Source: a virus (Duplodnaviria > Heunggongvirae > Uroviricota > Caudoviricetes). From it: a stretch of DNA of 64,000 nucleotides. Under the pieces are notes generated by a model. The model was not told the origin of the DNA, did not search any database, and saw nothing but the letters and a program-made list of their open reading frames with translations. Both the position numbers and the translations under genes were made by a program. The stretch is taken from IMG/VR virus record IMGVR_UViG_3300024268_000001; one strand, given 5' to 3'. This document shows positions 3,698 through 37,122 of the stretch, piece by piece (the first letter of the stretch is position 1; each line of letters starts with the position of its first letter).

Positions 3698-3773
3698 TTC
3701 AAAGTGTAATACATTGCATTACACTATCATAATATAGTAAAATGACGGGCTTTTGTAAACCCGCCATGCTACA

Positions 3774-4316
3774 TTATTTTAGTCTTTCAATTATCTTTTT
3801 GACAATTTCGTTATATCCGTCTTCAGTTCCGTCAGCAGTTTCATATTTCAGATTATTTGAATCCAAAAATTCCAATAATCTTCCATCGATTGCCCTAGCT
3901 TCTTCTTCAGTCTGGTTTCGACCGTTAGGATTATACTTCTTTGCACGCTTTACGAAAATATTAAAAGTATTTGGATATTTCTTTGCTTCATAAAGGCATA
4001 CATCCTGATACGGTTTTTCTTCGGTATACATAGCGCCCATTGCAATAGGACTATCTGTAACAATTACGTCAACCTTTCCGAGAAGTCTCGCAACTTTCAG
4101 GCATTGCTTACCGGTTACATATAACTGACAATACTTGAGCGGAAACTGATCATCTTGCCATACACGATCTTTCGCATATTCTGAAACATATTCACAATCA
4201 ACGCCAGCCATCTTAAGTTTCGCAAAAATATAAGCAGCTCCTGTCGACTTTCCCGAACCAGGACCCGCATAAAGATTAACCAATAGAGTATTACATGTTC
4301 TTTTCATAATTTTCAC
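3774..4316 (-). CDS. P-loop NTPase, putative nucleotide/polynucleotide kinase
   Basis: Walker A 'YAGPGSGKST' near the N-terminus. About 180 aa, the size of a small kinase. Upstream promoter-like 'aatatagtaaa' at about 4330. Confidence 0.55.
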   Translation of the reverse strand: MKIMKRTCNTLLVNLYAGPGSGKSTGAAYIFAKLKMAGVDCEYVSEYAKDRVWQDDQFPLKYCQLYVTGKQCLKVARLLGKVDVIVTDSPIAMGAMYTEEKPYQDVCLYEAKKYPNTFNIFVKRAKKYNPNGRNQTEEEARAIDGRLLEFLDSNNLKYETADGTEDGYNEIVKKIIERLK

Positions 4317-4412
4317 CTGTGATTACAAATATAGTAAATTTTTTATTGCCTATTGAAATGTTTATAAAAATCTGTATTTACAAAAACGCTTCAGTTTGCT
4401 ATATTTATTAAC

Positions 4413-5600
4413 ATGAAGATTGATTTATCGACTATCAAAAATGACCTCCTCACTTCTGGTATGAAACTCGCTTCCGCTATCGAAAGCAAGGGTTACGAAG
4501 CATATCTGGTTGGCGGTTGCGTTCGTGACATGGTTCGTTGGACTATTGGCCAATGTGGTTTTCCGGATATTCACGATATTGACATCAGCACGAACATGCC
4601 TATCGATGAACTTCAGAAAAACTTCAAAACTGCCAGTAACAATGGCGAAGCTCACGGCACTATTCTGGTTTTCCAGGACGGTGAGCCTTTTGAAGTGACT
4701 CAGTTCCGTACCGATGGCGCTTATACCGATGGTCGTCACCCGGATTCAATCAAGTTCGCCAAGACTTTCAAGGAAGACTGCTTACGCCGCGATTTTACTA
4801 TCAACGCAATGGGTCTTACCGGTCAGGGTGAAGTCATTGACTATTACGGTGGTATCGATGATGTTACGAACGGCATTATCCGAGCTGTCGGTAAGGCAGA
4901 AGACCGTTTTGCTGAAGATTATCTCAGAATTTTCCGCGGTGTTCGTTTCATGGTCAACTTCGACTATTCTTTGGCTGATAGTACCTATGAAGCGATGAAG
5001 ACAACCGTTGATACTTATACTTATAAGATTAACTCTCTGTCTTATCCTCGTATTCGTGATGAAATCAGCAAGGTCAAGAATCCTTCTAAGAATCTCGCTT
5101 TGTTTTTCACGACACTGTATCGTACCGGTATTCTGAAATACTTGGTTACTTTCGAAGATGTTGATATTCCGGGTCTGATTGCACGTTTAGAATCTGTAAA
5201 TCATCTCACTGCGGATAACATCTTTGCGGTTATCGCTTTCGGCGAATACGACGTAATGTTACATCGTCTTGCTGCTACTCGAGAAGATTCTCGTTTGCTC
5301 AAGTGGTATTATTACATGCTCAAGAAGCTGAAAGAACCTAACGAAAATACAAGCTGGGACACTATTGTTAAATTCGTCGAAGGTGATTACAAAACTCTCC
5401 TCGAACTGTCCAAGATTGTTCCTGCCTGGTATAACAGAATTCCTATCGCTTTGAAGCTTAAAAAGGATAAACCCGATTTACATGCTATCTCTGAAAGAGT
5501 TCAGAACGAATTTCATGTTAAACCAGGTCCTAAGTTCGGTGCAGCTGTTAGCTACCTGCTCGAAGAGGCTTACGAAGCAAAAGCAAGGCATCTTCAATAA
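4413..5600 (+). CDS. cca: tRNA nucleotidyltransferase (CCA-adding enzyme) / poly(A) polymerase family
   Basis: 'LVGGCVRDMV' (GGxVRD) followed by 'DIDIST'. These are the class II nucleotidyltransferase head-domain signatures. 395 aa. Confidence 0.8.
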   Translation: MKIDLSTIKNDLLTSGMKLASAIESKGYEAYLVGGCVRDMVRWTIGQCGFPDIHDIDISTNMPIDELQKNFKTASNNGEAHGTILVFQDGEPFEVTQFRTDGAYTDGRHPDSIKFAKTFKEDCLRRDFTINAMGLTGQGEVIDYYGGIDDVTNGIIRAVGKAEDRFAEDYLRIFRGVRFMVNFDYSLADSTYEAMKTTVDTYTYKINSLSYPRIRDEISKVKNPSKNLALFFTTLYRTGILKYLVTFEDVDIPGLIARLESVNHLTADNIFAVIAFGEYDVMLHRLAATREDSRLLKWYYYMLKKLKEPNENTSWDTIVKFVEGDYKTLLELSKIVPAWYNRIPIALKLKKDKPDLHAISERVQNEFHVKPGPKFGAAVSYLLEEAYEAKARHLQ

Positions 5601-5603
5601 AAA

Positions 5604-5632
5604 TAAACCCGGTTTTAAAAACCGGGTTTTCT
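5604..5632. terminator. bidirectional intrinsic terminator
   Basis: The sequence aaacccggtttt-aaaa-accgggttt forms a hairpin flanked by A/T runs. It lies between convergent genes (4413..5600 on plus, 5634..5882 on minus). Confidence 0.7.
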
Positions 5633-5633
5633 T

Positions 5634-5882
5634 TTACTTAGCGGTAGATTCCCAACTGAAAGTAATTGTGTTATTGTCTTCGTCCATTCGAAGGAACTTA
5701 AATTCAAATTCAGAGAATTCAATATCCTTACGTTTCATCGTGGGCGATTTTACTTGAACTTCAAGAACTGGCAAACAGCATTCTCGGAATCGTGTGATTT
5801 GACGAGATGCTCCAGGAGTTCCTTCAGCTTCATCTACAATAGAACATGCTTTAGTTTTCTTATTAACTCTTACAATAACCAT
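5634..5882 (-). CDS. hypothetical small protein
   Basis: 82-aa ORF packed directly against the downstream kinase gene. Confidence 0.4.
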   Translation of the reverse strand: MVIVRVNKKTKACSIVDEAEGTPGASRQITRFRECCLPVLEVQVKSPTMKRKDIEFSEFEFKFLRMDEDNNTITFSWESTAK

Positions 5883-6323
5883 TTAGATTCTCCGTTTAAT
5901 TTTAATTTCGTTTTCCAGATCCTTAAACTGTTCTTTCATGTATGCAACCTTATCTGGCGGTACATTATGAACATTTTGGAATTCGTTATCCATACGATAA
6001 ATCGTGACCTCAATGCCACGAGCTGCCGCCTCTTTCAAATACGGTTTCATATCCTTACGGGTTACAAAAGTATTTGCGACGATAACATACTGAATTCCGT
6101 CGTCTAATGCCTTAAACGCTCTTTCATAACAATTTTTATGGGCATAATAAATTCGTTTTTGGTCGAAATTATAATTACCCTTATCATCATACCAAAAATC
6201 GTCGGCCTCGAAGTGCTTGACTGTATAGCCCTGCTTTTCGAGGTCGGCTTTAAGCGCTTTGGCATAAGTAGACTTTCCGGATCCAGGGATTCCCCTGATA
6301 ATTATTAATGTCTGCTTTGCCAT
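5883..6323 (-). CDS. polynucleotide kinase-like P-loop kinase (kinase domain only)
   Basis: 'IIIRGIPGSGKSTYAK' Walker A at the N-terminus. 146 aa, like the kinase module of T4 Pnk / bacterial Pnkp. Adjacent to an RNA ligase-like gene and a metallophosphoesterase gene. Confidence 0.6.
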   Translation of the reverse strand: MAKQTLIIIRGIPGSGKSTYAKALKADLEKQGYTVKHFEADDFWYDDKGNYNFDQKRIYYAHKNCYERAFKALDDGIQYVIVANTFVTRKDMKPYLKEAAARGIEVTIYRMDNEFQNVHNVPPDKVAYMKEQFKDLENEIKIKRRI

Positions 6324-6514
6324 TTTTCTGATTTCCTATTCTGTGAACCGATATATTATCGCAACCAGTAGAACATTCAGTAAATAGAATTTAAAGAATA
6401 TTCCTAGGATTGTACGACAACATAAGTCTTTGCTTGTGGTTCCTATTGAAGATATGACTAAAAAGAAACATTCCAATAGGAACAACGCCGTTCCATATTC
6501 AAATATAGTTAAAA

Positions 6515-7783
6515 TCATTCTTCAATAGTCCTCTGCACGTTAGAAGGTTCCAATTTTTTGTGAACTGCACGCTTAACAGATGCATAATTAGTGATATTAC
6601 GATTAATGCACTTGATAGCCTGCATAATAGCCCCAATATCGCTCTTATAGTGCTCCAGAGCGTATTCGTAGCGAGAACGCTGGTCTTCGCAAGCCTTCAT
6701 GGTTTCGCGAGCCTCAGCGAGAACTTCTTCAGTACGTTCCTTAACCTGAATGCGGACACTTTCGGCGTATGCACGTAAATCAGGGAATTCTTCAGGAATA
6801 TACAGAACTTCATCATCTACAGGCTTGTAACCGTTAGTCTTGTCGACATGGGCATGGAAGAAATCCTTTTCACAGTCATACGCTACCCAGATATTCCACT
6901 CGCTGAGGCATTCGAATATCTTTGCGAGCTGGCACCATTCATCGGATTTAACCTTGACCTTGAATCCATATTCCGGGAAAGTTACAACATAACCTTCCTG
7001 AGACGAAGGAAGCTTGGTCGCAGTATTTCGAGCGTCATTGAAATTATCGTATTCATAGATTTCTGCCATCTTGATTTGCCAAGTATTGGCATAAGCGCTA
7101 AGTCCAATAATATGCTCTTCAGCACCAGTTTCATTGTCGATAACTGCCAAAAGAACAAGACCTTCAAAATCATAACGAATCGGGTGAAAATCTTCATTTG
7201 AAACAATTTCAAACAAATAAGTTTTCTTCGGATTCAAAGTTGCCGCATGAGGACCGCCGATATGCTGGTCAAACCAACGCTGTCCCCAAATTGCCTGGTC
7301 AGAATCGAAAGATCCACCGGTCTTCAACTGCCAATGCTTAAGATAAGGATTCCAGAATACAATACCTAAAGAACCGTCCACCTTTTCCATAGTCAGGAAA
7401 CGAATAGACTTGAGAATCTTTCGAATATCAATTTTCTTCTGGTACTTCATTACCTTTTTTGCAAGGTCGGTAAGTTCGCCAGTTTCGTTGTTAATCAATT
7501 CGCCATAGTTGAAGAATTTATCAAAAGGACGTGCTACAATTTCGCCGGTTTCAGAATCGAAAACAATACCACGAGCATTGAGAGTAATTTCATCCCAATC
7601 CGATGAATATACTGTTTCACGAGTATACTTGAAACCAACCAGCTTACCATACCAGTGAGCTGAAATACGTCCCTTCTTTGCTGCCTTCAAATACTTACGG
7701 AGTCTGTGCTTGTTCCGCAGTTTCCGGAGTAGGTTCTTCAGCCAAGTCATCATTTTTCTTTTCCACCTTTTTCTTAGGCTCAT
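6515..7783 (-). CDS. RNA ligase-like nucleotidyltransferase (Rnl1-type KxDG motif)
   Basis: 'FLTMEKVDGSLGIVFW' covalent nucleotidyltransferase motif I. 422 aa. The N-terminal 30 codons overlap ORF 7695..7970, so the true start is uncertain. Confidence 0.55.
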   Translation of the reverse strand: MSLRKRWKRKMMTWLKNLLRKLRNKHRLRKYLKAAKKGRISAHWYGKLVGFKYTRETVYSSDWDEITLNARGIVFDSETGEIVARPFDKFFNYGELINNETGELTDLAKKVMKYQKKIDIRKILKSIRFLTMEKVDGSLGIVFWNPYLKHWQLKTGGSFDSDQAIWGQRWFDQHIGGPHAATLNPKKTYLFEIVSNEDFHPIRYDFEGLVLLAVIDNETGAEEHIIGLSAYANTWQIKMAEIYEYDNFNDARNTATKLPSSQEGYVVTFPEYGFKVKVKSDEWCQLAKIFECLSEWNIWVAYDCEKDFFHAHVDKTNGYKPVDDEVLYIPEEFPDLRAYAESVRIQVKERTEEVLAEARETMKACEDQRSRYEYALEHYKSDIGAIMQAIKCINRNITNYASVKRAVHKKLEPSNVQRTIEE

Positions 7784-7970
7784 ACTTATGAGTCTTATCG
7801 AGTTCTACCGTTTCAATAGTACATCCAGCTTCATACTTTTCACGAATGAAACTTTCAAGTTCTCCGCGAACTTCAGTTTCCGTTTCGCCATAACGCTTAA
7901 AAACAAGCGGTCCTGGAATACCTTCAATTAAAACCAAGCACTTATAACGTTGTTTCATTATTTTTCCCAC
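7695..7970 (-). CDS. hypothetical small protein
   Basis: 91-aa ORF with an acidic low-complexity C-terminal tail. Overlaps the start region of the RNA ligase ORF. Confidence 0.4.
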   Translation of the reverse strand: MGKIMKQRYKCLVLIEGIPGPLVFKRYGETETEVRGELESFIREKYEAGCTIETVELDKTHKYEPKKKVEKKNDDLAEEPTPETAEQAQTP

Positions 7971-8650
7971 ATGGCATCGGTTTTGACCAGTTCATCAATG
8001 CTTACTGGACGATACCATGCTTCCCAGCTAACATTGTTTTCGACCATTTTGCCGTTATGGTTATCGACAACGCTAGTCTTGTTGAATTCATGCGTATGAC
8101 CATGAACGAGATAGTCAATAGGCTTACCTTCCGCAAGATACTGGTTCAATGCGGTCGGGTCACCAGTTGTACCGTCATGTTCATTAATCGTTTCATCATA
8201 ATTATAATGCTGCAACAGATAGTTCTTACCATTATACGTAAGGTAAATGTTATCCTTTACCATAGTAATGTTCGGAAACATAGTTTCCTTGACCGGATAG
8301 AGCTTCTTGAACAGAGCATAGTCATGATTACCACGAATCATATACATGTGCTTGAAATTCAACTTGTTCGTGTAATAATCGCCAAACACTTCAAGCAACT
8401 TGCTACCGGGAGTACCGAGAGTAAAATCACCGAGGAAAATGACAATATCATTCGGAGAAACAACAGAATTCCATTGCTTCACAATATCTTCATTCATTTC
8501 CTCGACGGTTACGTACTTTCGTGTACGGTCAAAATGATCCTCGTAACTCGTGCAGAGTTTACGATGATTAACGTGCAAGTCACTGACAATAAAAATCTTT
8601 TCGTTGTGTAATTCTAGTTCCATAATGCAAATATAATAAAAATAAGGCAT
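7958..8650 (-). CDS. calcineurin-like metallophosphoesterase (candidate 2',3'-phosphatase of the RNA-repair set)
   Basis: Metallophosphoesterase motifs 'IVSDLHVNH', 'GDFTLG', 'GNHDY' and 'HGHTHE'. A -10-like 'tatattt' lies 6 nt before the ATG, so the mRNA is possibly leaderless. Confidence 0.7.
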   Translation of the reverse strand: MPYFYYICIMELELHNEKIFIVSDLHVNHRKLCTSYEDHFDRTRKYVTVEEMNEDIVKQWNSVVSPNDIVIFLGDFTLGTPGSKLLEVFGDYYTNKLNFKHMYMIRGNHDYALFKKLYPVKETMFPNITMVKDNIYLTYNGKNYLLQHYNYDETINEHDGTTGDPTALNQYLAEGKPIDYLVHGHTHEFNKTSVVDNHNGKMVENNVSWEAWYRPVSIDELVKTDAMWEK

Positions 8651-8671
8651 TTTGTAAATGCCTTATTTTTT
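8644..8671. terminator. intrinsic terminator
   Basis: The sequence aaggcattttgtaaatgcctt forms a hairpin followed by attttttg. Confidence 0.65.
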
Positions 8672-8832
8672 GTCACCAGATTTTGGAAACCGGTAACAGA
8701 GCAATACTAATAAAATTGTTTCAAGAATTACATAGATTATCGAAAACTGAAGCTGTAACAATGAACAGAAAATGAACATTGTAAAGAACACTGATAAAAA
8801 CGTGTTAATAATGAATAATAACAGTTTTTCCA

Positions 8833-9051: not shown

Positions 9052-10170
9052 TTACTTCTGCAGATAATCTTGAATAATCTTTTCATGATGGAAACCCATC
9101 TTCGGAAGATTACCGACACTGAACCATGCTGCATCCTTCGCATCGTCGCCGGCCTTAGCCATCTTCTTTTCCTTACCAGTAACCCTTACAGATACTGCTG
9201 TATCGATAATACGCAAGCGTGGGTCAAACATATGGCTATAGGTCTTAATCTGTTCGAACTTTTCAACTGGGAGGTTCAGAGACGTTTCTTCGCGGAATTC
9301 ACGCTGTGCTGCATGTTCCAAAGAAGCATCAGCCTTTTCAGGAAGTCCGGTTTCCTTATTGATATAATCAACCGGATTAAAGAATCCACCAGGAGTACAG
9401 AAGTAATTCATATACGGTGGTTTCCTACGGCGAATCAACAGAACTTCATCACCGGAAATACCGACAATATCAACCGTGTTTGCAAACTTTCCCCAACCCT
9501 GCTTCTTATAGTTTTCAATCCACTGCTTTTCAAGTTCAGTATAGTTGGTCGGATTCTGGTCATAAAGACTGTTTGTCTTAATCGGATTATCACGGTCATC
9601 CGTAAGTTCGCCTTCTTTTCGGATATATTCAAACACTGGCTTGCTAATCAGTGTCTTAACATCCTTATAGTGGCATTCCGGATTACGGTAGAAAATTTTA
9701 CGAGCTTCGCTACTGGAAATACCTTCAGTCTTAATACCCATGAGATAAGTACAATCATAACCGTACTTCGATTTCAATGCACCATCATTATCATCACGAG
9801 GAATAACCAAGAACTTATAGTTATTCAAAAGCTGATTACCGAACTTCCACTTTCCGTTAACCAAAGAATACCATTCGTCTTCGCCGATAACAATAGTAAT
9901 ATCCTTATCCTTGGTACCGAACTTATGGGAAATGAATTCATAAGTCCTGTTATTCTGAACGAGAATCGTAGGATTCAACTTTCGTGCAGTCATTGCGACC
10001 TTAACCATCGCGACACGTTCATCTACCGGAGTCTTATAATTCTTTTCGTCCGTATTGGAAACAAGAACATAAAGTTCATCGCCCTTACGAACCTTTTTGC
10101 TCACTGCCTTAATAATAGCTTCATGAGCGTGAGTAATCGGATCAAATGCACCACCAATCAAATACTTCAT
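9052..10170 (-). CDS. nadM: bifunctional NMN/NaMN adenylyltransferase - Nudix hydrolase (NadM-like)
   Basis: N-terminus 'GGAFDPITHAH' is the cytidylyltransferase (H/T)xGH motif. C-terminus carries the Nudix box 'LEHAAQREFREETSL'. Strong RBS 'aggaga' 6 nt upstream. Confidence 0.75.
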   Translation of the reverse strand: MKYLIGGAFDPITHAHEAIIKAVSKKVRKGDELYVLVSNTDEKNYKTPVDERVAMVKVAMTARKLNPTILVQNNRTYEFISHKFGTKDKDITIVIGEDEWYSLVNGKWKFGNQLLNNYKFLVIPRDDNDGALKSKYGYDCTYLMGIKTEGISSSEARKIFYRNPECHYKDVKTLISKPVFEYIRKEGELTDDRDNPIKTNSLYDQNPTNYTELEKQWIENYKKQGWGKFANTVDIVGISGDEVLLIRRRKPPYMNYFCTPGGFFNPVDYINKETGLPEKADASLEHAAQREFREETSLNLPVEKFEQIKTYSHMFDPRLRIIDTAVSVRVTGKEKKMAKAGDDAKDAAWFSVGNLPKMGFHHEKIIQDYLQK

Positions 10171-12314: not shown

Positions 12315-14243
12315 TTACTTCTTTGTTTCGGAGAACAAATCAATAAGAGTGTCCTTGCTCAACTGAGTCAAATCAAGTCCAACTTCAGAATCCTTATCGG
12401 AATCGTCAACAAATGTAAAGCCTGCTTTTTCAAGAATCGGCTTCAGGTTGACGAACGAACGACACTTATTCTTGAGGTTTTCAATATACACGTCTGCATA
12501 TTCATGATTTGGCACACGTCCACCACCTTGAGTAAGGTCCATGAGGAATACCTTATTGTCTACAATAAGTGCACACTGCTTTTCGCGTTCATTATCAACT
12601 GGAATGATAAATTCAGCGAGAACATTGTTCGGATCCACCTTTACATCCACACGCTGGCTATAATAAGCATCTTTCTTAAGCTTCTTCTCTTGACGAGCAA
12701 CGAAGAACTTAAACTGAGACTTAGGAGAACCATTGTACTGGTTTACCGATACCTTGCCATCAGGACACTTACAGTCAATGTAGAACAATTCTGTTGCTTC
12801 CGGACGAGCTGTAGTCATATCACCCGAGTAAATGATCTTATTCTCATGGTCCTTGTAACTTGCGTTCCAACCATAAGTACCTCCATTAATGTCATACATA
12901 TGAAGGTCAAAATCCTGGGTTCCCCATTCTCCACGCCAATAGATACCAACAACGTTGTGGTCGTCGGACATATCAACGGAAGTGCCAAACGGATAATTAC
13001 CGATGAAGTTCTTTTCAGAAGTCGGCATTGTCAGATTGACATGCTGAGGATAACGAACAGTACATGCCTTATCCTTGATAGACTTGACCAACGAATCTTC
13101 AAGAAGATTGTAGACAACCATCAAGTAGGAATTCAATTCCTGATTAGGCACCGGAGCATCCTTACGAACCCACATCTTGCCGTTACGAATTACATACATC
13201 TTTCCGCTAGCATTCTGGAGCTTAGCGAGAATACCCTGCATGAGCGTGACCTTCTTGAAATTGGTGATTTCACCCTTTGCAAGACGTTCACGAACTTCGT
13301 CCAGCTTCTTGTGTTCAGAAAGTACAGTTTCCCAGAAACCTGCAGTAAACGGCTTATGGTCAGTAACAGCCAAACGACGGATATGGTTAATAACCGAGGA
13401 GTTTGTCTTCTGTCCAACAACAACGGCCTTAAGCTTTGCTGCGGCCTTTCTGAAAGCTTCATTCTTGAAAACTGCCGGCTTACCGTCAACCTTTTGGTTC
13501 TTGAACGCTAAGAATAACGGCTTGAAACGATAGAAAATCGAAGCGAGAGCGTGTAGCTGCTCATCCGACAACTTCGTAAAGTCGACAGTTTCTGCCTTTT
13601 CCTTAATGGCCTTGATAGTCTTTCGGTCCTTGATAAGCATGGCGCTGCCAGTTGCCTTAAAGACGAAATAACGTAACATGTTGAACGGGTCCTTGCCGTA
13701 GATACCTGTTGCATCCATCAATGCTATGGAAGCTTCCTTATTCTTGATGGAATCGACGTCGAGTCCATAAGTATTGAAACGCTTATCTTGCGTAATGAAG
13801 TTCACAAGGACATTAATGGTTTCAGTTTCAAGGGCAATCCCGGACTGGAGCATCTTTACACAGCGTGTATAAATTTCCTCGTCAGTCGCAGGCATAATAA
13901 CCTTGAATGAATTGTACGGAATTTCTACGTCCGGAGCGTTGTTTGGAATATACGCATCGCCCGTATAATTTGTGCCATAAGTAGAGGCATAATGAAGAAG
14001 TTGATCTACCAACAGTTCAAAACGCGTCTTGGACGTAATGTCAGACCACTTAGCATAAAACGTCTTATTGTAATTGGTCTTAGCTTCAGCATTCACCCAG
14101 TCAAGGGCAAGCTTCGAGCAACAGTCGGGATGAATAATCCAACCATACTTTGCTGATTCTGCGTTAACCTCTTCAAAAGAGCGCTTAGAGTTACCTTCTG
14201 CCTTAGGCATGACATTGAACATTGTAATCAACTTAAGATTCAT
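12315..14243 (-). CDS. large hypothetical protein (642 aa)
   Basis: Long uninterrupted ORF with RBS 'gaggaaaaatt'. No motif recognised. Confidence 0.6.
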   Translation of the reverse strand: MNLKLITMFNVMPKAEGNSKRSFEEVNAESAKYGWIIHPDCCSKLALDWVNAEAKTNYNKTFYAKWSDITSKTRFELLVDQLLHYASTYGTNYTGDAYIPNNAPDVEIPYNSFKVIMPATDEEIYTRCVKMLQSGIALETETINVLVNFITQDKRFNTYGLDVDSIKNKEASIALMDATGIYGKDPFNMLRYFVFKATGSAMLIKDRKTIKAIKEKAETVDFTKLSDEQLHALASIFYRFKPLFLAFKNQKVDGKPAVFKNEAFRKAAAKLKAVVVGQKTNSSVINHIRRLAVTDHKPFTAGFWETVLSEHKKLDEVRERLAKGEITNFKKVTLMQGILAKLQNASGKMYVIRNGKMWVRKDAPVPNQELNSYLMVVYNLLEDSLVKSIKDKACTVRYPQHVNLTMPTSEKNFIGNYPFGTSVDMSDDHNVVGIYWRGEWGTQDFDLHMYDINGGTYGWNASYKDHENKIIYSGDMTTARPEATELFYIDCKCPDGKVSVNQYNGSPKSQFKFFVARQEKKLKKDAYYSQRVDVKVDPNNVLAEFIIPVDNEREKQCALIVDNKVFLMDLTQGGGRVPNHEYADVYIENLKNKCRSFVNLKPILEKAGFTFVDDSDKDSEVGLDLTQLSKDTLIDLFSETKK

Positions 14244-14590
14244 AATTTTTCCTCATTAAAAGTGTTAAAGCGAGAAGTAAGTATTTTGCCTAAATTATAA
14301 TGATATAGGAACATCCTTTGCTTTAACGGTGTTAAATATAGTAAATTGTTTGTGTTTTGTAAACCCTATTTTTAAAGGTTTTTTAATGCTTTTTTCCAAG
14401 CCTTTACTTTCTTCTTGGATTCTTTGCTCAGTTTTAATCCGAAAATATCCATTAGTGCATTGGCAGTATCAACACCTGCCAAACGACTTTCGAGTTCTTT
14501 CTTCTTTAACGAATTTTCCGTTTCCAATGAACTTCCCATACATGTATAATATAGCAAGTGTATTTTATTTTGTAAACCCCTAAATATAAA

Positions 14591-14634: not shown

Positions 14635-15504
14635 TTATCGATTTTTTACAAAATCTAAAATATCCTTTTTAACTGATTCGTAGTAGTCATCCCAGATTTT
14701 CATAACTAAATTAATAGTTTTATCTGATACATCATCCATTTTTATCTTTTTTGTATAATTCGGAGATGCATTGAAAACATACTTATCGCCGAGAATGGCT
14801 TGTGCTTCATAAATTGGTGATTTTGAACTTCTTGCTACCCAATCTCCAATCATATATTCTGCCCATCCTAACAATGTTTTATTTCCATGTTCTGTATTTG
14901 GTGTATTCATTCCAGTATTAAAATTTAAAAGTTTAAGATTTCGATTGCCTTGTTTAAATTGACCAGCAATAACTATATCGGCAGGGTTATTTGCCCAACA
15001 GCCACCGTCCATATAAGAGTTTCCATCTTTTTCTATAACATCAAAATATGTAGGTGCTGCTGTTGATGTAAGTACAGCAAATGCCTTTGTTGTATCTTTA
15101 TCACCTAAATCCCACACTTTTTCTACAGAAGCACCATTCATAAATGTTGTTGTAATATAGATAGGTTTTTTCCAATCACTAACTTTACCTTTAAGTTTTT
15201 CTTCTAAAATTTTTTTAAGATTTGTATTATCATATGTTGGACACGTTGGTTTAAGTCGTTTATACCAGGAATTTTTTGTAAAAATTTTCTTTAAATTATC
15301 TTGGTATAATTTAAATATATCATGTGCACTCATACCTTCATTCATACATGCAGCAACTATTGAACCCGTAGAAGTACCAGTATATGCTGATACATAATCA
15401 CCTAATTTTTTACCTAGATCTTGTTCCAATCTGCACATAAATGCTAAAGGTCCCATAGCCAAGGCTCCACCACCTTCAATACTTAAACACAATTGTTTGC
15501 CCAT
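14635..15504 (-). CDS. patatin-like phospholipase
   Basis: Oxyanion-hole 'SIEGGGALAMG', nucleophile elbow 'GTSTG' and catalytic Asp motif 'YMDGGCWANNP'. Very AT-rich codon usage. RBS 'aggaga'. Confidence 0.8.
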   Translation of the reverse strand: MGKQLCLSIEGGGALAMGPLAFMCRLEQDLGKKLGDYVSAYTGTSTGSIVAACMNEGMSAHDIFKLYQDNLKKIFTKNSWYKRLKPTCPTYDNTNLKKILEEKLKGKVSDWKKPIYITTTFMNGASVEKVWDLGDKDTTKAFAVLTSTAAPTYFDVIEKDGNSYMDGGCWANNPADIVIAGQFKQGNRNLKLLNFNTGMNTPNTEHGNKTLLGWAEYMIGDWVARSSKSPIYEAQAILGDKYVFNASPNYTKKIKMDDVSDKTINLVMKIWDDYYESVKKDILDFVKNR

Positions 15505-17202: not shown

Positions 17203-17562
17203 TCATAAACCACGCGACGCTGAACTGGGGGCTTTCTTCATTTTTTCCTTATGTTCATTCATAAGTTTTTCAGCAAGTTCATATGACGGAATATAAGAAC
17301 CAACATCCCATGAAGCATCTTTTGAACAAATATGAGGTTTAGATTCTTCTTTCCAAATATGACTATCACGGTATCTTAAATATCGTTCCATATTATAGGT
17401 CAAGCGAAACCAATTCTTCGAACCGCTATTTATCTTACGATATTCAACAACAAACCATGACGGGTCTCTGTTTACAATACTTGGAGCAACATCAAAATCG
17501 AACGTCGGATATTCATATGTACCGAGTTCTATAATACGATATTCATAAAGCGATTTTTCCAT
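17203..17562 (-). CDS. hypothetical protein
   Basis: 119-aa ORF. ATGA-type junction with the ligase gene. Confidence 0.45.
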   Translation of the reverse strand: MEKSLYEYRIIELGTYEYPTFDFDVAPSIVNRDPSWFVVEYRKINSGSKNWFRLTYNMERYLRYRDSHIWKEESKPHICSKDASWDVGSYIPSYELAEKLMNEHKEKMKKAPSSASRGL

Positions 17563-18716
17563 TAGAACACATATCCTTCACGAGATTTACCGGTTGTAAC
17601 ATTACGCAAGATAGTCGGAATAATTTCACCAGCCTTCGTAATAATAACTTCATGACCGATTTCGATGCCCATATATTCAAGCATGTCAATATTGCACATA
17701 TTTGCACGCTGAACTGTAGTTCCGCAAAGTTCAACAGGTTCAACTACTGCAACCGGAGTCAAATTGCCATTCTTGATAGACCATTCAATGTTAATGAGCT
17801 TGGTCTGAGCAAGAGAATACTTCGGCTTGAGTGCAATCGAGAATTCCGGCAAATAATTGGTTTCAAGATCTTCATAATCAATCAAAGACGTCTTCCAAAC
17901 AAGACCGTCAATCTGATAATCACGTTCTTCATGCCAAATCTGGTCCATAAGAGCGACAGCCTTTTCACCGTTCATGGTTTTAAGGTCGTAAATCTTGTAG
18001 TCAACAACATCAAAACCCTGGTTTTTCATCCAATCAAGCATATCAGACTGAAGTCGGAAATGACGCTTGGTGTTAGAGGCATAGCGAGCTTCATAAACCT
18101 TGATATTAAGCTTTTCACAATCTGCACCGTCGAGATGCTTCATAATACCAGAAGCAGCATTTCGGCAGTTCTTATACTTCGGGAAATACTTTTCCTTAAC
18201 GGACTTGTAAAGCAAAATTTCGCCGCGAATAGTTCCTGTAAAATCCTTATCGACTTTCTTGACGAGACCATTCATCTTAAGAATATTATTGGTAATGTCG
18301 TCACCGTATGTACCATCACCACGGGTAGTACCCTGAACGAACTTTCCATCGACGTATTTAAGCGCAATAGAGCAGCCATCGAGCTTCAAAGGAGCAACGA
18401 CATATTCATGACCATTCATACGGCACTTATTGAACCAGACATCCATTTCTGGAGCCGTATTGGCCTTATTCTGAGAACCCATGATAATATCATGCTTGAC
18501 TTTTTCAAAACCTTCAGTATGGTCCTTACCAACTTCCTTCAAAACATCAGAATCAGGATATTTAGTCTTCAGTTCATCCCAGAGTGCATCAAATTCAATG
18601 TCGCTCATGATAGGAGAATCGGAATTATAATAGGCATCTTGTGCCTGACGGATTTTTGCTTCAAGTTCGTTCTTATTCATGTGATACAATATAGTAAAAA
18701 ATATAGGCTTTGTCAA
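17562..18716 (-). CDS. ligA: NAD-dependent DNA ligase (LigA adenylation + OB domains, short form without BRCT)
   Basis: N-terminal Ia-like 'DAYYNSDSPIMSDIEFDALWDEL'. Motif I 'PLKLDGCSIALKY'. 'TTRGDGTYGDDIT' matches LigA 'ATRGDGttGEDIT'. Confidence 0.8.
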   Translation of the reverse strand: MTKPIFFTILYHMNKNELEAKIRQAQDAYYNSDSPIMSDIEFDALWDELKTKYPDSDVLKEVGKDHTEGFEKVKHDIIMGSQNKANTAPEMDVWFNKCRMNGHEYVVAPLKLDGCSIALKYVDGKFVQGTTRGDGTYGDDITNNILKMNGLVKKVDKDFTGTIRGEILLYKSVKEKYFPKYKNCRNAASGIMKHLDGADCEKLNIKVYEARYASNTKRHFRLQSDMLDWMKNQGFDVVDYKIYDLKTMNGEKAVALMDQIWHEERDYQIDGLVWKTSLIDYEDLETNYLPEFSIALKPKYSLAQTKLINIEWSIKNGNLTPVAVVEPVELCGTTVQRANMCNIDMLEYMGIEIGHEVIITKAGEIIPTILRNVTTGKSREGYVF

Positions 18717-21410: not shown

Positions 21411-23051
21411 TTAGCGACGACGGCGACGAGAAAGTTCAGCAATAACTGTCGGATCGTTCATCATGTCCGAAAGGCTACGTCCAATAGAAGTATTAGCTTC
21501 AGCCGGTTCCTTAGTCTTGTCAACATTCGGAGTTTCCGGACGAGCTTCAGCCTTAGGTTCATTTACGACTTCTGCTTCGGTCTTTTCAACCTTTGGAGCA
21601 CCGGAAACACCAGCGAGTCGGGCACCGAACATAGAACCGAGAACAGTCTTGAGGTCCATACCGAGAGAATCGGTCAAACCGCTAGAAATCTGAGTAAGCG
21701 TCTTGGTAATATCGCCGGTGAGCTTTGCAGTACCGCTTTCACCGTACATATTGATGTTACCAATCTTTTCCATCGGCTTAGCAACTGCACCAGCGATAGC
21801 CGGGAGCTGTTCGAAATACTTTTCAATAGTCTTGAGCTGCATTTCCTGACGAGCTGCATCACCATACTTCTTCATGGCTTCAGCCTTCTGGTCAAGAGCT
21901 GCTGCTTCTGCAAGACCCTTAGCCTTTACAGCATCAGCTTCAGCTTCACCCTTAGCCTTAGTAGCTGCAGCTTCAGCGAAAGCCTTTTCCTTATCAGCTT
22001 CAGCCTTGGCGATAATTGCCTTAGCTTGCTGCTGCTGGGTAAAGAGTGCTGCTTCAGCTTCCTTCTGCTGCTTATAAAGTTCAGCATCAGAACGCTGCAT
22101 CTGAGCCTGCTTATCGGCTTCAGCCTTCTTCTGAATTTCAGCTTCGAGTTCCTTCTGACGGACAGCTACCATGCGTTCACGAATTTCAATCTGCTTTTCC
22201 TGCTTTGCAACTTCTGCAGCTGCTGCAGTAATATTGATGGTCTTCTGCTGTTCCTGCTTCTGAATTTCATAAGCGGCATCAGCTTCGGCCTTCTTAGTAT
22301 CAGAAATTCGCTTAAGGTCAGCCTTCTTAACTTCGAGGTCGTTCTGCTTCTGAGCGATTTCAAGGTTTGCTGCAACCTGAGCATCGTTTGCTGTCTTCGC
22401 TGCTTCAGCCTGAGCAATCTTCACGTCACGTTCTGCATTTGCTCGAGAAATTGATGCAGCCTTCTGAATTGCTACAGCCTTATCAACACCGAGGTTTTCA
22501 ATTACCTTACCGTCGTCCGAGAAGTTCTGAATATTGAAGGTCTTAACGATAATACCGAGCTTTTCAAGATCTGGAATAGCATTTTCAAGAACCTTCTCAG
22601 AAACCTGCTTTCGGTCCGTAACCATGTCGACAAGATTCATCTGGCCGACAATCTCACGCATATTACCCTCAAGCACGTCAACAATCATCGCCTTAATCTG
22701 TTCAATCGGCTTATTGAGGAAGTTCTGGGCAGCTTTCTTAATTGCTTCAGGTTCATCAGAAATCTTTGCATTAACAACAGCGTCAACTGTTACATTAATG
22801 TAGTCCTTGGTCGGAACTGCCTGCTTAGTCTTGACGTCAATCGGAATCAACTTCAAGCTAAGAACGTCAGCACGTTCAAGGAACGGGATCTTGAAACCGG
22901 CATGCCCGATAATTGTTCGAAGCTGTCGGAAACCCGAAATAATAATTACTTCATCCGGCGCCGCCTTAATATAAGACGTAATGAAGAGGATAACGAGGAA
23001 AAGTACGAGCAGGCCGATACCCGCACCGATGAGGATATTTGAACTAAGCAT
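21411..23051 (-). CDS. flotillin-like SPFH/band-7 domain protein (YqiK-like)
   Basis: N-terminal TM. SPFH-like 'PDEVIIISGFRQLR...' region. Then a long Ala/Glu/Lys/Gln-rich coiled coil (AEAAKTANDAQVAANLEIAQKQNDLEV...). 546 aa. Confidence 0.75.
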   Translation of the reverse strand: MLSSNILIGAGIGLLVLFLVILFITSYIKAAPDEVIIISGFRQLRTIIGHAGFKIPFLERADVLSLKLIPIDVKTKQAVPTKDYINVTVDAVVNAKISDEPEAIKKAAQNFLNKPIEQIKAMIVDVLEGNMREIVGQMNLVDMVTDRKQVSEKVLENAIPDLEKLGIIVKTFNIQNFSDDGKVIENLGVDKAVAIQKAASISRANAERDVKIAQAEAAKTANDAQVAANLEIAQKQNDLEVKKADLKRISDTKKAEADAAYEIQKQEQQKTINITAAAAEVAKQEKQIEIRERMVAVRQKELEAEIQKKAEADKQAQMQRSDAELYKQQKEAEAALFTQQQQAKAIIAKAEADKEKAFAEAAATKAKGEAEADAVKAKGLAEAAALDQKAEAMKKYGDAARQEMQLKTIEKYFEQLPAIAGAVAKPMEKIGNINMYGESGTAKLTGDITKTLTQISSGLTDSLGMDLKTVLGSMFGARLAGVSGAPKVEKTEAEVVNEPKAEARPETPNVDKTKEPAEANTSIGRSLSDMMNDPTVIAELSRRRRR

Positions 23052-23090: not shown

Positions 23091-23831
23091 CTAATCGTTC
23101 AGCCATGAGTTTTCCATTGCAATAAAGATACAACATATTACAATAATAACTATCGAGAAAATTATCCAGAAATACAATACTGTATGTTTCCAGCTAAAAT
23201 CCTCTACTGCTTGATCGATTTTTACATTGTCACGATATTCTGCATCATTCATTCGATGATTATCGATATTTGCATATACCGTTCCAGTAAAACTTAATGG
23301 GCGACAATAATAAACATATCGTTTATTATGTGCGAAATTGATTGTCTTTACATAATGACCGCTTGGCAATTCCGGAAACTGACCGTAGTAAAAGTCTTTC
23401 TTAATAAAATTAACTTTATCTACATTCCAGTCTTTTGCTCCATGATAGTCCCATGTCCAATAGACCTTAGTATGACAGCTACGTGTCTTTCCAGAACCAG
23501 TACAAACAAGCTTCGTATGCATCGTATAGACCTCGAGCACTCGATGGACTGACATATACTTACCTGGCAAACCGTCGTCTGTAACACTGCCTATCGCGGA
23601 AACAGTTCCGTATGCCAAAGTATGCCCAGCATTAGTATTGAATGCATATTGAAACTGTGTAGAATCGTTATCGATTTTCACAGCCTGATTGTACTTCGCA
23701 TTATGGTCATCTTGCCAAAGATCCATCCTATTACCTACGTAGAAACCTACTGCTAGGGAAATAAGAGCGAATACAAGCGCTACAATAACTTCACGCTGAG
23801 TTACTTCAATATTGGTATCACCAATATACAT
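23091..23831 (-). CDS. membrane protein (TM near both termini)
   Basis: 'VIVALVFALISLAVGFYV' near the N-terminus and 'VLYFWIIFSIVIIVICCIFIAM' near the C-terminus. Confidence 0.5.
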   Translation of the reverse strand: MYIGDTNIEVTQREVIVALVFALISLAVGFYVGNRMDLWQDDHNAKYNQAVKIDNDSTQFQYAFNTNAGHTLAYGTVSAIGSVTDDGLPGKYMSVHRVLEVYTMHTKLVCTGSGKTRSCHTKVYWTWDYHGAKDWNVDKVNFIKKDFYYGQFPELPSGHYVKTINFAHNKRYVYYCRPLSFTGTVYANIDNHRMNDAEYRDNVKIDQAVEDFSWKHTVLYFWIIFSIVIIVICCIFIAMENSWLND

Positions 23832-24388
23832 TAATTCTTTTCCTTAAGAAGTCCTGTGGGTGCGTCTACTGGCGCATTTGCAAATTCAAGAACCTTATAG
23901 TCCTTTTCCTGATAACCTAGAATACTCAAACAGATGTTTGACGGGAACATACGAACATGCTGATGATATTCGGTTACATTTTTATTATAATACTTACGAT
24001 GCGACGCAATTCGATTTTCAGTCATGGATAATTCATTCATGTACTGCTTATAATTTTCTATTGAACGCAATTCTGGATAACGTTCTACAACACCACGGAT
24101 ATATGCAGAAGCATTAACATTTCCGTTGCCTTCTGCTGGTGTACGAGCCTGTGATAGCTGTACCAAAACTTCGGCTTCATGCTTGTTATACGACATTACT
24201 GCTTCTGCCAAGTTAACAAGCAAGCCTGCACGTCGATTATATTCGGTGTTCAAATCGCTCAAAGAACTTTCAATGAGCAATTCCTTTGCGATTGCCTTAT
24301 TTTGTGAGCTTTGTACGCCAAACACTGTGGCGATAATCAATGCTACAATAATAGCAAGACTTGAAATTAAGACTGTTACGGGTTTCAT
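23831..24388 (-). CDS. lemA: LemA family protein
   Basis: N-terminal TM. 'EYNRRAGLLVNLAEAVMSYNKHEAEVLVQLSQAR' and 'TENRIASHRKYYNKNVTEYHQHVRMFPSNI' match the LemA family pattern. Confidence 0.65.
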   Translation of the reverse strand: MKPVTVLISSLAIIVALIIATVFGVQSSQNKAIAKELLIESSLSDLNTEYNRRAGLLVNLAEAVMSYNKHEAEVLVQLSQARTPAEGNGNVNASAYIRGVVERYPELRSIENYKQYMNELSMTENRIASHRKYYNKNVTEYHQHVRMFPSNICLSILGYQEKDYKVLEFANAPVDAPTGLLKEKN

Positions 24389-31893: not shown

Positions 31894-32062
31894 ATTACCT
31901 AATATAGAAAAATATCGTAATTTTGTAAATAGTTAAATTAAAGCGAACATAACGATAATACCGCCAATCAATCCTACAAGGATAATAGTCGCTATTATCT
32001 TCAGCGCCAATTCTTCTATACCGCCGCCGAATAGATTTTTATCTTCGTCTTTTGTCATACAA

Positions 32063-32479: not shown

Positions 32480-32987
32480 AACTTATCCTTAACAATTAAA
32501 TATAGCAAAACTGTAACAAATAGTTTACAACCTATATATAAAAGTTCTATGATTTTTAAAACGACAGAATATTTTATTTTTAGTTAAAAAAATTTTTACA
32601 AAAACTTTCTATTATTGTTTTCACATATTCAAGTCTGATTCCTCGGAACGAAAACCAATCCAATGGAATTATCGGTAGAGGGTCAGCCATTGAAAACTTC
32701 AGATACGGGTTTTCCAGAAATGAGCTGGAATATCGTTTTGAAATATACTCGGTAACAGCTAGTGAAAGTATCAGCGAAGTACAGATTAGCAATCTGCACG
32801 TTTAGCCGCCATGGTTTTAACGGATGTAGCCGAAGTACAGGATGACCGCCTCGTAAGCCGTTATGTAAATCCCTAAAGATTGACGATGAAGCTTTATACC
32901 AAAAGTGGAATAGTCATAGTCTGGAAGTTCCTTCTAGGCTTATGATCTCTGAATCGCATTACCCAAAAGATAGAACAGATAAAAATA

Positions 32988-35970: not shown

Positions 35971-37122
35971 TTAGGCTACATTGTCTCGTTTTACGAAAAT
36001 GGTAAATCCAAGGAAACCAATAAAATAGAGAAGTGCCAAAACAAGATATAAAGTATTGTCAGTAAACAAGTTTCCAAGAATAGGTCCCGCAATTCCAGCA
36101 AATCCCCAGGCACTAAGCGTCATAGAGTGAACTGTAGAAAGACAACTATCTCCGAATCTCTTAGCAAGTAAACTTGGCAAACAACTGAATCCTCCGCCGT
36201 AGTTCCATTCAATCATCAAAATACCAGCTACAAGCAAAATCGGATTTTGTGTATAACACAAAAACGCACCAAGAATACCCAAACTTGCAACCCAATGATA
36301 AGCAGCCTTTCTACCAATCGAATCACTAGCCGTACTCATTCCAAATCGACCACCGACATTTGCAACAGCTGTAGCAGCCATAAGTGAAGCGATAGCAGTA
36401 TATCCAGCATTTAAAAACAGGCTCTTTTCCTGAGAAATAAGTGCAAGGCCGCATGTAATGTTGATAAAGAACATAAACCAAATCGAAATATATTCTTTAG
36501 TCAAAAATTTGGCCTTTATAAGAGTCTTATACGGAATAGCAGTATATTTTGTAGAAATATATGCAGGATTAGGTTTATATAGCCATGAAGAGAAACTCAT
36601 TACAACTAAGAAAATCAATCCCATGAGTAAGAATACAACTGGCAACGTAAAGGTTGCAAGCAAATACTCAATCATAGGAGCCGCAACGAACTTTCCCAAT
36701 CCGAAACCGGTAATAGCCAATCCGGAAGCGAGTCCTTTATGATTACTGAAGTTTGCAAGCAGCTGTTTAATTGGTGCCGTATAGCCTATGCCGGTACCGC
36801 AACCCATAAATGAACAGCCGATATAATAAAGTGGTAAAAATCCAGTATAGGTTGCAAACGAAAGTAGCAATAATCCTATTGCAAACAGAATTGTTGAAAC
36901 TATCGCCATTCGTTTCGGGAACATTTCAACGAATCTTCCGAAAACCGCAGCACCCATGCCAAGGAAGAAAATAATCAGAGTAAATCCAATATCAGCTGAG
37001 AATTTCGAAATATCAAAAGTCTCCATGATATTCTTGGCATATTGTGAATAGTTATAAACTGAACCTAAACTGACAGGTAACAAAATACCCGGAATTAAAA
37101 TATTGAGAAATCTATTTGTCAT
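35971..37122 (-). CDS. MFS-type transporter (about 12 TM)
   Basis: 383 aa. Hydrophobic helices are spaced regularly throughout (e.g. LNILIPGILLPVSLGSVY, GFTLIIFFLGMGAAVFG, LVLALLYFIGFLGFTIFV). Confidence 0.7.
   Translation of the reverse strand: MTNRFLNILIPGILLPVSLGSVYNYSQYAKNIMETFDISKFSADIGFTLIIFFLGMGAAVFGRFVEMFPKRMAIVSTILFAIGLLLLSFATYTGFLPLYYIGCSFMGCGTGIGYTAPIKQLLANFSNHKGLASGLAITGFGLGKFVAAPMIEYLLATFTLPVVFLLMGLIFLVVMSFSSWLYKPNPAYISTKYTAIPYKTLIKAKFLTKEYISIWFMFFINITCGLALISQEKSLFLNAGYTAIASLMAATAVANVGGRFGMSTASDSIGRKAAYHWVASLGILGAFLCYTQNPILLVAGILMIEWNYGGGFSCLPSLLAKRFGDSCLSTVHSMTLSAWGFAGIAGPILGNLFTDNTLYLVLALLYFIGFLGFTIFVKRDNVA

Follow-up and report, generated by a model that had tools for sequence, protein, structure and literature searches.

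The window analysed here, the whole 64,000-nucleotide stretch of the Caudoviricetes virus record IMGVR_UViG_3300024268_000001, carries a compact block of minus-strand genes encoding a metallophosphoesterase (MPE), a Rnl1-family RNA ligase and a kinase of the polynucleotide-kinase (PNK) clade, together with a convergent gene for a class II CCA-adding enzyme. In our judgment, these genes probably constitute a phage operon for the healing and sealing of RNA, co-regulated with the gene of the CCA-adding enzyme. The four enzymes belong to the families named and keep their catalytic motifs intact, the genes are laid out like an operon, and a common promoter motif stands before the operon and the CCA gene. 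The operon structure, the occurrence of MPE-kinase fusions in relatives and the recurrent linkage of the genes support the pathway. The T4 Pnkp/Rnl1 system, bacterial Pnkp and a survey of jumbo phages, all discussed below, suggest by analogy that the substrate would be tRNA and the purpose counter-defence.

Families were assigned from Pfam and PHROGs, plus comparison of family profiles with the PDB. Single-sequence PDB searches with the ligase, the kinase, the MPE and an AAA_28-like protein were uninformative, and family profiles were used instead. An earlier note on this DNA had described five open reading frames (ORFs) as a dispersed RNA-repair toolkit. All five are present at the coordinates it gave, but the genes that we retain, far from being dispersed, form one operon-like block plus the convergent CCA gene, as follows:

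8630..8658, minus strand: copy of the promoter-like motif (TTTACAAAA-N14-TATATT) directly ahead of the MPE start codon, ATG 8623
7958..8623, minus strand: metallophosphoesterase of the AQ1665-type subfamily, about 221 amino acids (aa); the ORF extends to 8650
7695..7958, minus strand: orf87, a small, conserved ORF
6515..7753, minus strand: Rnl1-family ATP-dependent RNA ligase, 412 aa counted from M11; the ORF extends to 7783
6336..6518, minus strand: orf60, a small, strongly hydrophobic ORF
5883..6323, minus strand: stand-alone P-loop kinase of the polynucleotide-kinase clade (N4BP2-like), 146 aa, with AAA_33 and KTI12 matches
5634..5882, minus strand: orf82, a small ORF, last gene of the unit
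5605..5629, both strands: bidirectional intrinsic-terminator hairpin with an 11-bp stem and T-runs on each strand, between orf82 (minus) and the CCA gene (plus)
4413..5600, plus strand: class II CCA-adding tRNA nucleotidyltransferase, 395 aa, without an HD domain, convergent with the operon
4377..4405, plus strand: promoter-like motif, 8 nt upstream of the CCA ATG
3731-3759, 14335-14363, 14548-14576 and 31901-31929, minus strand: other copies of the motif

The six co-directional minus-strand genes follow one another in the order MPE, orf87, ligase, orf60, kinase, orf82, and all their junctions overlap or abut. The start of orf87 shares one base with the MPE stop codon and its end overlaps the ligase start by about 59 nt, the orf60 ATG overlaps the ligase TGA as ATGA, and the kinase gene and orf82 directly adjoin. 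The unit is bounded by the promoter-like motif at 8630-8658 and by the terminator at 5605-5629, the latter being common to the minus-strand unit and the convergent CCA gene. The motif TTTACAAAA-N12-15-TATATT occurs in six exact copies in the window, compared with 0.01 expected, and the copies ahead of the MPE and CCA genes are kept at the same positions in the related locus L001, whose ligase is 86% identical. Since one copy lies immediately upstream, the MPE is likely to start at 8623 and not at 8650. The -35 part of the motif falls in the loop and 3' arm of terminator-like hairpins at 3742-3767 and 8638-8670, giving terminator-promoter composites.

No family was found for the three small ORFs of the unit: orf87 gave no Pfam or PHROG match, and orf82 gave no Pfam match. 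Among the related loci, orf87 is kept in L001/L003/L011, L009 and L032-L035, orf60 is conserved at the protein level in L001/L003/L011 and L009, and orf82 is kept in L001/L003/L011 and L017-L019. One of the three small proteins may be membrane-like. In L009 (1835-2219), the homologues of orf87 and orf60 stand next to each other without an intervening ligase; apparently the ligase gene was either gained or lost at this point.

The ligase matched the Pfam family RNA_lig_T4_1 (PF09511) with 62.7 bits, well above the cutoff of 28.3 (E value of 6e-17), and PHROG 562 over nearly its full length (1.6e-45, with the alignment reaching residue 399). When a family profile built from 24 members was compared with the PDB, T4 Rnl1 (2c5u) was the sole significant match (2.7e-13), and neither a DNA ligase nor a capping enzyme appeared among the matches at an E value of ≤0.01. 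The counterparts of T4 R54, K75, F77, K99, K119, E159, E227, G228, K240 and K242 were invariant in the 24 members, as were the aligned window residues R61, K79, F81, K124/D126, K144, E182, E253/G254 and K267/K269. Motifs I (KxDG), III, IV (EG) and V (KxK) are all present, together with the residues that are essential specifically in Rnl1. The reading of 6515..7783 as a KxDG, RNA-ligase-like enzyme in the earlier note is therefore borne out by the Pfam and PDB matches. Its grouping with DNA ligases or capping enzymes, which would have counted against the reading of that note, was not found, since the profile hits T4 Rnl1 and a separate NAD-dependent DNA ligase is encoded at 17562-18716.

The true start of the ligase is probably M11, at position 7753. 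The NCBIfam equivalog model for T4 RnlA (TIGR02308) gave 47.1 bits against a cutoff of 242, and the protein is about 25 to 30% identical to its nearest homologues in isolated phages. Judged by these scores, the window ligase is a distant member of the Rnl1 family, below the level of an orthologue of T4 RnlA.

For its part, the kinase family profile matched polynucleotide and tRNA kinases in the PDB, namely PSTK (7e-11), T4 Pnk (3e-9), Pnkp1 (2.7e-8), the Mucorales RNA 5'-OH kinases (9drz, 4e-8; 9d8a, 4e-7), the kinase domain of Clostridium thermocellum Pnkp (CthPnkp) (1e-6) and mammalian PNKP (3e-6). Adenylate-type kinases matched at the P-loop only, as did nicotinamide riboside kinase (0.02), and thymidylate kinases were absent among the profile hits. 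These comparisons agree with the Pnk-type call made previously for 5883..6323 and group this protein with polynucleotide and tRNA kinases and not with deoxynucleoside monophosphate (dNMP) kinases, a possibility that had been raised with that call. In the Walker A motif (G-S-G-K-S-T), G14, G16 and K17 are invariant and S15 and T19 nearly so; D41, which aligns with the general base D35 of T4 Pnk, is also invariant. The C-terminal HAD (DxDxT) 3'-phosphatase domain of T4 Pnkp is missing. The pattern RGIPGSGKST..EADxF..GxYxF..AH..C..VANT..NVHNVP resembles the kinase of N4BP2/N4BP2L1, and a sequence that we take to be human N4BP2L1 reached a probability of 99.9% against the kinase in hhalign, which serves as a lead only because the reference is unverified. 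Published work assigns the N4BP2/NONU-1 kinase to the PNK clade. In Mucorales, stand-alone kinases of this size have been proven to act as RNA 5'-OH kinases, and kinases of the PNK clade often take DNA too (Ghosh et al. 2024, PMC11571804). On the basis of these similarities, the window protein is predicted to act as an RNA 5'-OH kinase.

The MPE matched Pfam Metallophos (3.7e-14) and PHROG 547 (3.5e-33). The motifs DxH, GD, GNHD, H and GHxH are all invariant in the family (D15, H17, G65-D66, G98-N99-H100-D101, H139, H174-G175-H176 and H178), so that the calcineurin-type phosphoesterase assigned earlier to 7958..8650 stands, with every metal-binding motif in place. The family profile matched Aquifex AQ1665 (1xm7) at 1e-22, and the same structure was the top Foldseek match of the AF2 model (pLDDT of 95.7). 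By analogy with other end-healing phosphoesterases, its role would be that of a 2',3'-cyclic phosphodiesterase and 3'-phosphatase.

The CCA-adding enzyme showed the PF01743 PolyA_pol head domain (1.7e-29, 103 bits) with the sequence LVGGCVRD and matched PHROG 2244 (3.2e-51). The closest structures were the CCA-adding enzymes of Planococcus (6ibp, 4e-43) and Bacillus (1miv, 9e-38), and the alignment to 6ibp was free of gaps through GGxVRD, DxD, the flexible loop, RRD and EDxxRxxRxxRF. The flexible loop, needed for A addition, is therefore undeleted. Among the NCBIfam models, the CCA model PRK13299 scored by far the highest (219.8 bits, still short of its curated cutoff of 290), followed by PcnB (112.8) and the A-adding model (43.5). 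Head domain and structural alignment both agree with the class II enzyme with GGxVRD proposed before. A literature search for phage CCA enzymes in counter-defence returned nothing beyond the jumbo-phage survey of Iyer et al. 2021.

The strongest single argument that the MPE and the kinase act together is of the Rosetta-stone type. Proteins in which an N-terminal MPE is fused to a C-terminal kinase (357 to 365 aa) were found in seven homologue clusters (P0180-P0184, P0186; P0183 probable), and in one of them, P0180, identity to the window proteins amounts to 61% for the MPE and 51% for the kinase. To assess linkage, 64 fetched loci were surveyed with hidden Markov models of the window families and grouped by ligase identity, and the 14 lineages whose ligase was at least 34% identical to that of the window were counted. 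Of these, 7 have a member of the same kinase family no more than 5 kb from the ligase and on its strand, 6 have the same MPE subfamily at up to 10 kb, and 4 have the CCA enzyme at up to 3 kb. If a genome is 400 kb long, the chance that a single-copy gene falls at most 10 kb to either side of another is about 5%. Given the fusions in relatives and the recurrence of the linkage across lineages, the repair genes are grouped more than by chance. Gene order varied: kinase-x-MPE-x-ligase in L023, L025 and L027 (confirmed by Pfam in L023), ligase-x-kinase in L005 and L014, and ligase directly followed by the CCA gene in L007 and L017-L019. In the lineages with recurring kinase-MPE-ligase or ligase-CCA clusters, the ligases are about 40% identical to that of the window, and all four enzymes occur together only in the window lineage.

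Taken in order, the proposed pathway would begin when a metal-independent host nuclease cuts an RNA, most plausibly a tRNA, leaving 2',3'-cyclic-phosphate and 5'-OH ends. The MPE would open the cyclic end and strip the 3' phosphate to give a 3'-OH, and the PNK-clade kinase would phosphorylate the 5'-OH to give a 5'-PO4. The Rnl1-family ligase, via a Lys-AMP intermediate, would then close the 3'-OH/5'-PO4 nick, and the class II CCA-adding enzyme would restore damaged tRNA 3' ends. A more specific version, to which we give a little less than even weight, is that the AQ1665-type MPE and the N4BP2-like kinase are an uncharacterised healing pair replacing T4 Pnkp across a large clade of rumen and gut megaphages, and that, with Rnl1, the small proteins and the CCA enzyme, they mend tRNAs attacked by host defences at the anticodon loop as well as at the 3' end. 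If true, this would for the first time assign a function to the AQ1665 MPE family.

The fifth gene named in the earlier note was dropped from the set:

3774..4316, minus strand: thymidylate/deoxynucleoside-kinase-like P-loop protein, probable start at ATG 4307, judged to be outside the repair set

This protein gave a weak AAA_28 match (29.6 bits) and matched PHROG 2107, labelled thymidylate kinase. Its best PDB match by family profile was the deoxynucleoside kinase 2jas (6e-4), and a Foldseek search with a high-confidence AF2 model found thymidylate kinase (TMK) at 1e-6, with the NadR kinase domain fifth at 7e-6. The invariant residues G22, K23, S24, D88, P90, R124 and R133, together with the nearly invariant S89, correspond to the P-loop, a DS(P) motif and the LID arginines. 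The family is large and includes fusions with guanylate kinase or ADP-ribosylglycohydrolase; one homologue, P0242, is interrupted by an intein with Hint and LAGLIDADG domains. Judged by profile and model, the product is probably a nucleotide-metabolism neighbour of the small-molecule kinase type; it may, less probably, be a nicotinamide riboside kinase.

A five-gene kit with two polynucleotide kinases, as the earlier note proposed it, therefore appears highly improbable. An AAA_28-like gene does lie again 4 to 9 kb from the ligase-CCA pair in the L007 and L017-L019 lineage. Nevertheless, the fold and profile matches, on which a second polynucleotide kinase was rejected, point to thymidylate and deoxynucleoside kinases and to the NadR kinase domain, the guanylate kinase fusions and the PHROG label point the same way, and the gene is a transcription unit of its own, divergent from the CCA gene. 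The resemblance to a dNMP kinase, about which that note had cautioned, thus applies to this gene and not to 5883-6323.

A bifunctional NMNAT (CTP_transf_like) plus Nudix gene of NAD+ salvage lies at 9052-10170 on the minus strand, some 400 nt ahead of the repair operon. In six lineages such a gene is again found at about 5 kb or less from the ligase or from an MPE-kinase fusion, directly beside the fusion in L009 and near the ligase in L016, L020/L022, L026 and L036. The genes may here form an island of counter-defence, or NAD+ and RNA repair may be functionally connected.

Two further explanations were weighed against a heal-and-seal operon. The genes could be unrelated auxiliaries that merely share an early or nucleotide-metabolism region, with the CCA enzyme maturing phage tRNAs that lack an encoded CCA, the kinase and the MPE processing DNA ends in the manner of PNKP for the NAD-dependent DNA ligase, and the Rnl1 homologue serving as a tail-fibre attachment factor. 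T4 gp63 (Rnl1) does have this second role, and PHROG 562 bears a tail-fibre annotation. The region is also rich in genes of DNA and nucleotide metabolism, the acceptance of DNA by PNK-clade kinases (PMC11571804) fits this explanation, and genomes of about 420 kb usually encode many tRNAs (PMC7824862), whereas the analysis of this genome covered the window only. We nevertheless consider co-location alone unlikely. The genes form a tight operon with overlapping junctions and the CCA gene has a promoter of the same class; MPE and kinase are fused elsewhere, and distant lineages again show clusters of kinase, MPE and ligase, in shuffled order; the neighbourhood contains no structural genes; and a scan of the window and of 32 related loci found tRNA genes in L028 alone, where there are two for tRNA-Ser. 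The earlier note had likewise seen no tRNA genes in the window.

A different partnership, in which the MPE, with or without the kinase, works with NMNAT-Nudix in a module for NAD+/ADP-ribose or cyclic nucleotides, breaking down defence signals or salvaging NAD+, would account for the proximity of that gene to the window MPE, to the L009 fusion and to the ligase in the other loci. Phages are known to have calcineurin-like phosphodiesterases acting on nucleotide signals, and NAD+ salvage genes have been described as counter-defence (PMC7824862). However, the kinase family is closest to polynucleotide and tRNA kinases, nicotinamide riboside kinase being matched at the P-loop level only; the MPE gene belongs to the unit of the ligase and the kinase, which has a promoter-like motif of its own, apart from NMNAT-Nudix; and L023, L025 and L027 carry kinase, MPE and ligase without NMNAT. 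This explanation seems even less likely than chance co-location.

Several observations weigh against the heal-and-seal proposal itself. The C-terminal domain of the ligase fails to align with the tRNA-specificity domain of T4 Rnl1, the PDB and NCBIfam alignments stopping at about residues 265 to 293, and its specificity for tRNA is for this reason putative. In the kinase, the counterparts of T4 Pnk R38 and R126 are missing, with an aromatic residue and Gln in their places. The match of the MPE to the CthPnkp phosphatase (4j6o) is marginal (6e-3), as is that to lambda phosphatase, and its nearest relative, AQ1665 (1xm7), is a structural-genomics orphan of an uncharacterised family; a literature search for AQ1665/1xm7 function returned nothing relevant and no characterised member of the subfamily. 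The end-healing chemistry of the MPE consequently stands as a prediction. The lineages in which ligase and CCA genes adjoin have no kinase or MPE nearby, and the L009 fusion, which adjoins NMNAT-Nudix, has no ligase nearby. Finally, the linkage counts are inflated because related megaphages inherit synteny, although the shuffled gene orders argue in part against pure inheritance.

With respect to the origin of the DNA, the window has a G+C content of about 36% and is coded almost entirely on the minus strand. No near relative was present among the 50,697 deposited phage genomes of INPHARED, megablast of positions 3700-8700 gave no match, and an exact-sequence look-up with the window ligase retrieved no record. 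Close homologues of the window genes sit on metagenomic contigs of 180 to 424 kb that also encode DNA polymerase B, UvsX, Cpn10, ClpP and an IF1-like protein, and the window is accordingly taken as a fragment of an uncultivated megaphage, with a genome of roughly 420 kb. An Rfam scan of the window yielded nothing except a full-length match to the cow-rumen-2 RNA (RF02947) at 32773-32877 on the plus strand, within a block of minus-strand genes (102.8 bits; gathering score of 66). This RNA suggests a rumen-type habitat and also that the cow-rumen-2 orphan motif is carried by megaphages.

The genes of DNA and nucleotide metabolism around the operon comprise the NAD-dependent DNA ligase, a dUTPase, a 5'-3' exonuclease and the TMK-like kinase. 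None of Hen1, RtcB, Tpt1, 2H, RlaP and Thg1 was detected among the approximately 45 window ORFs scanned, some small ORFs lying outside the scan. Tandem Cpn10/GroES-like genes on the minus strand (1254-1583 and 1598-1927) are both kept in L001 and L003, and unusual membrane-related auxiliary genes, also on the minus strand, are found at 14635-15504, 21411-23051, 23831-24388 and 35971-37122 (patatin-like phospholipase, SPFH/flotillin, LemA and MFS transporter). Synteny with the repair and NAD genes also extends to a conserved protein of about 640 aa that matches neither Pfam nor PHROGs (12315-14243, minus strand, in the window; 3757-5673 in L001; 7987-9930 in L009); its L009 gene immediately precedes the MPE-kinase fusion, and the window copy has the promoter-like motif ahead of it. 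In L034 (11670-13256), and likewise in the L031-L035 lineage, a 528-aa protein with DUF2828 and DUF7788, whose gene follows that of the Rnl1 ligase after about 500 nt, may be an RNA-repair accessory. The 642-aa protein of the window (12315-14243) was considered as a Ro/TROVE-like or DUF2828 protein like this L034 neighbour and was rejected, as it showed no similarity to it and no Pfam hit.

Healing and sealing of tRNA by phages have been known since T4, in which Pnkp and Rnl1 (gp63) repair tRNA and so counter the PrrC anticodon nuclease. The window genes share with this system the Rnl1 ligase family, with all catalytic residues kept, a PNK-clade kinase with the equivalent catalytic Asp and, as far as their sequences allow us to predict, the logic of healing a 2',3'-cyclic-phosphate/5'-OH break before sealing it. 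They differ in that the kinase is a stand-alone, N4BP2-like protein of 146 aa with no HAD phosphatase domain, that 3' healing is assigned to a separate metallophosphoesterase, and that a CCA-adding enzyme is added.

Similarly, the Clostridium thermocellum Pnkp/Hen1 system uses the three chemistries predicted for the window enzymes, with a binuclear metallophosphoesterase as the 3' healer, and relatives of the window genes fuse two of these three modules. In Pnkp, however, kinase, MPE and ligase reside in one polypeptide, whereas the window genes are separate; the fusions of the relatives run MPE-kinase, while the Pnkp order is kinase-MPE; the window MPE is of the AQ1665 subfamily and not of the lambda-phosphatase type; and the window ligase is Rnl1 rather than a Pnkp ligase domain. 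For Hen1, the methyltransferase partner of Pnkp, no hit was obtained among the scanned window ORFs, which did not include every small ORF. The claim in the earlier note that the activities of T4 and bacterial Pnkp are reproduced here as separate polypeptides is supported at the level of families for the kinase and the ligase and not for the MPE, which is of neither the lambda-phosphatase nor the Pnkp type.

Among viruses, Iyer, Anantharaman, Krishnan, Burroughs and Aravind (2021, PMC7824862) reported that jumbo phages combine Rnl1/Rnl2 ligases, PNK kinases and phosphoesterases, that calcineurin-like phosphoesterases occur in a small number of these phages, and that CCA-adding enzymes are the second most common end-restoring nucleotidyltransferase in their survey. 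The combination of ligase, kinase and phosphoesterase with a CCA enzyme had therefore already been catalogued; the window lineage differs from those sets in that its members are megaphages of rumen type, uncultivated and represented by contigs of about 400 kb, with no near relative in INPHARED. In the Mucorales system of an RNA 5'-OH kinase and an RNA ligase (Ghosh et al. 2024, PMC11571804), healing and sealing are likewise performed by separately encoded small proteins, whose kinases are matched by the window kinase profile (9drz, 9d8a). Unlike the phage genes, the Mucorales and fungal Trl1 systems are eukaryotic, serve tRNA splicing and need a 2'-PO4 junction and Tpt1; their kinases are GTP-specific and their ligase is of the Trl1 type, not the Rnl1 type.

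The gain over earlier work is incremental, because the concept of phage RNA repair is already established in the literature. What appears to be new is modest: the AQ1665-type MPE paired with or fused to an N4BP2-like kinase, the layout of operon and promoters, and the three embedded small ORFs. If the operon works as proposed, it would extend the T4 tRNA-repair paradigm to uncultivated megaphages with a different solution for end healing. It would also offer a testable function for the structural-genomics orphan 1xm7 and a prokaryotic-virus counterpart for the kinase domain of animal N4BP2/NONU-1, and it predicts that the hosts of these phages use defences that cleave tRNA and damage tRNA 3' ends.

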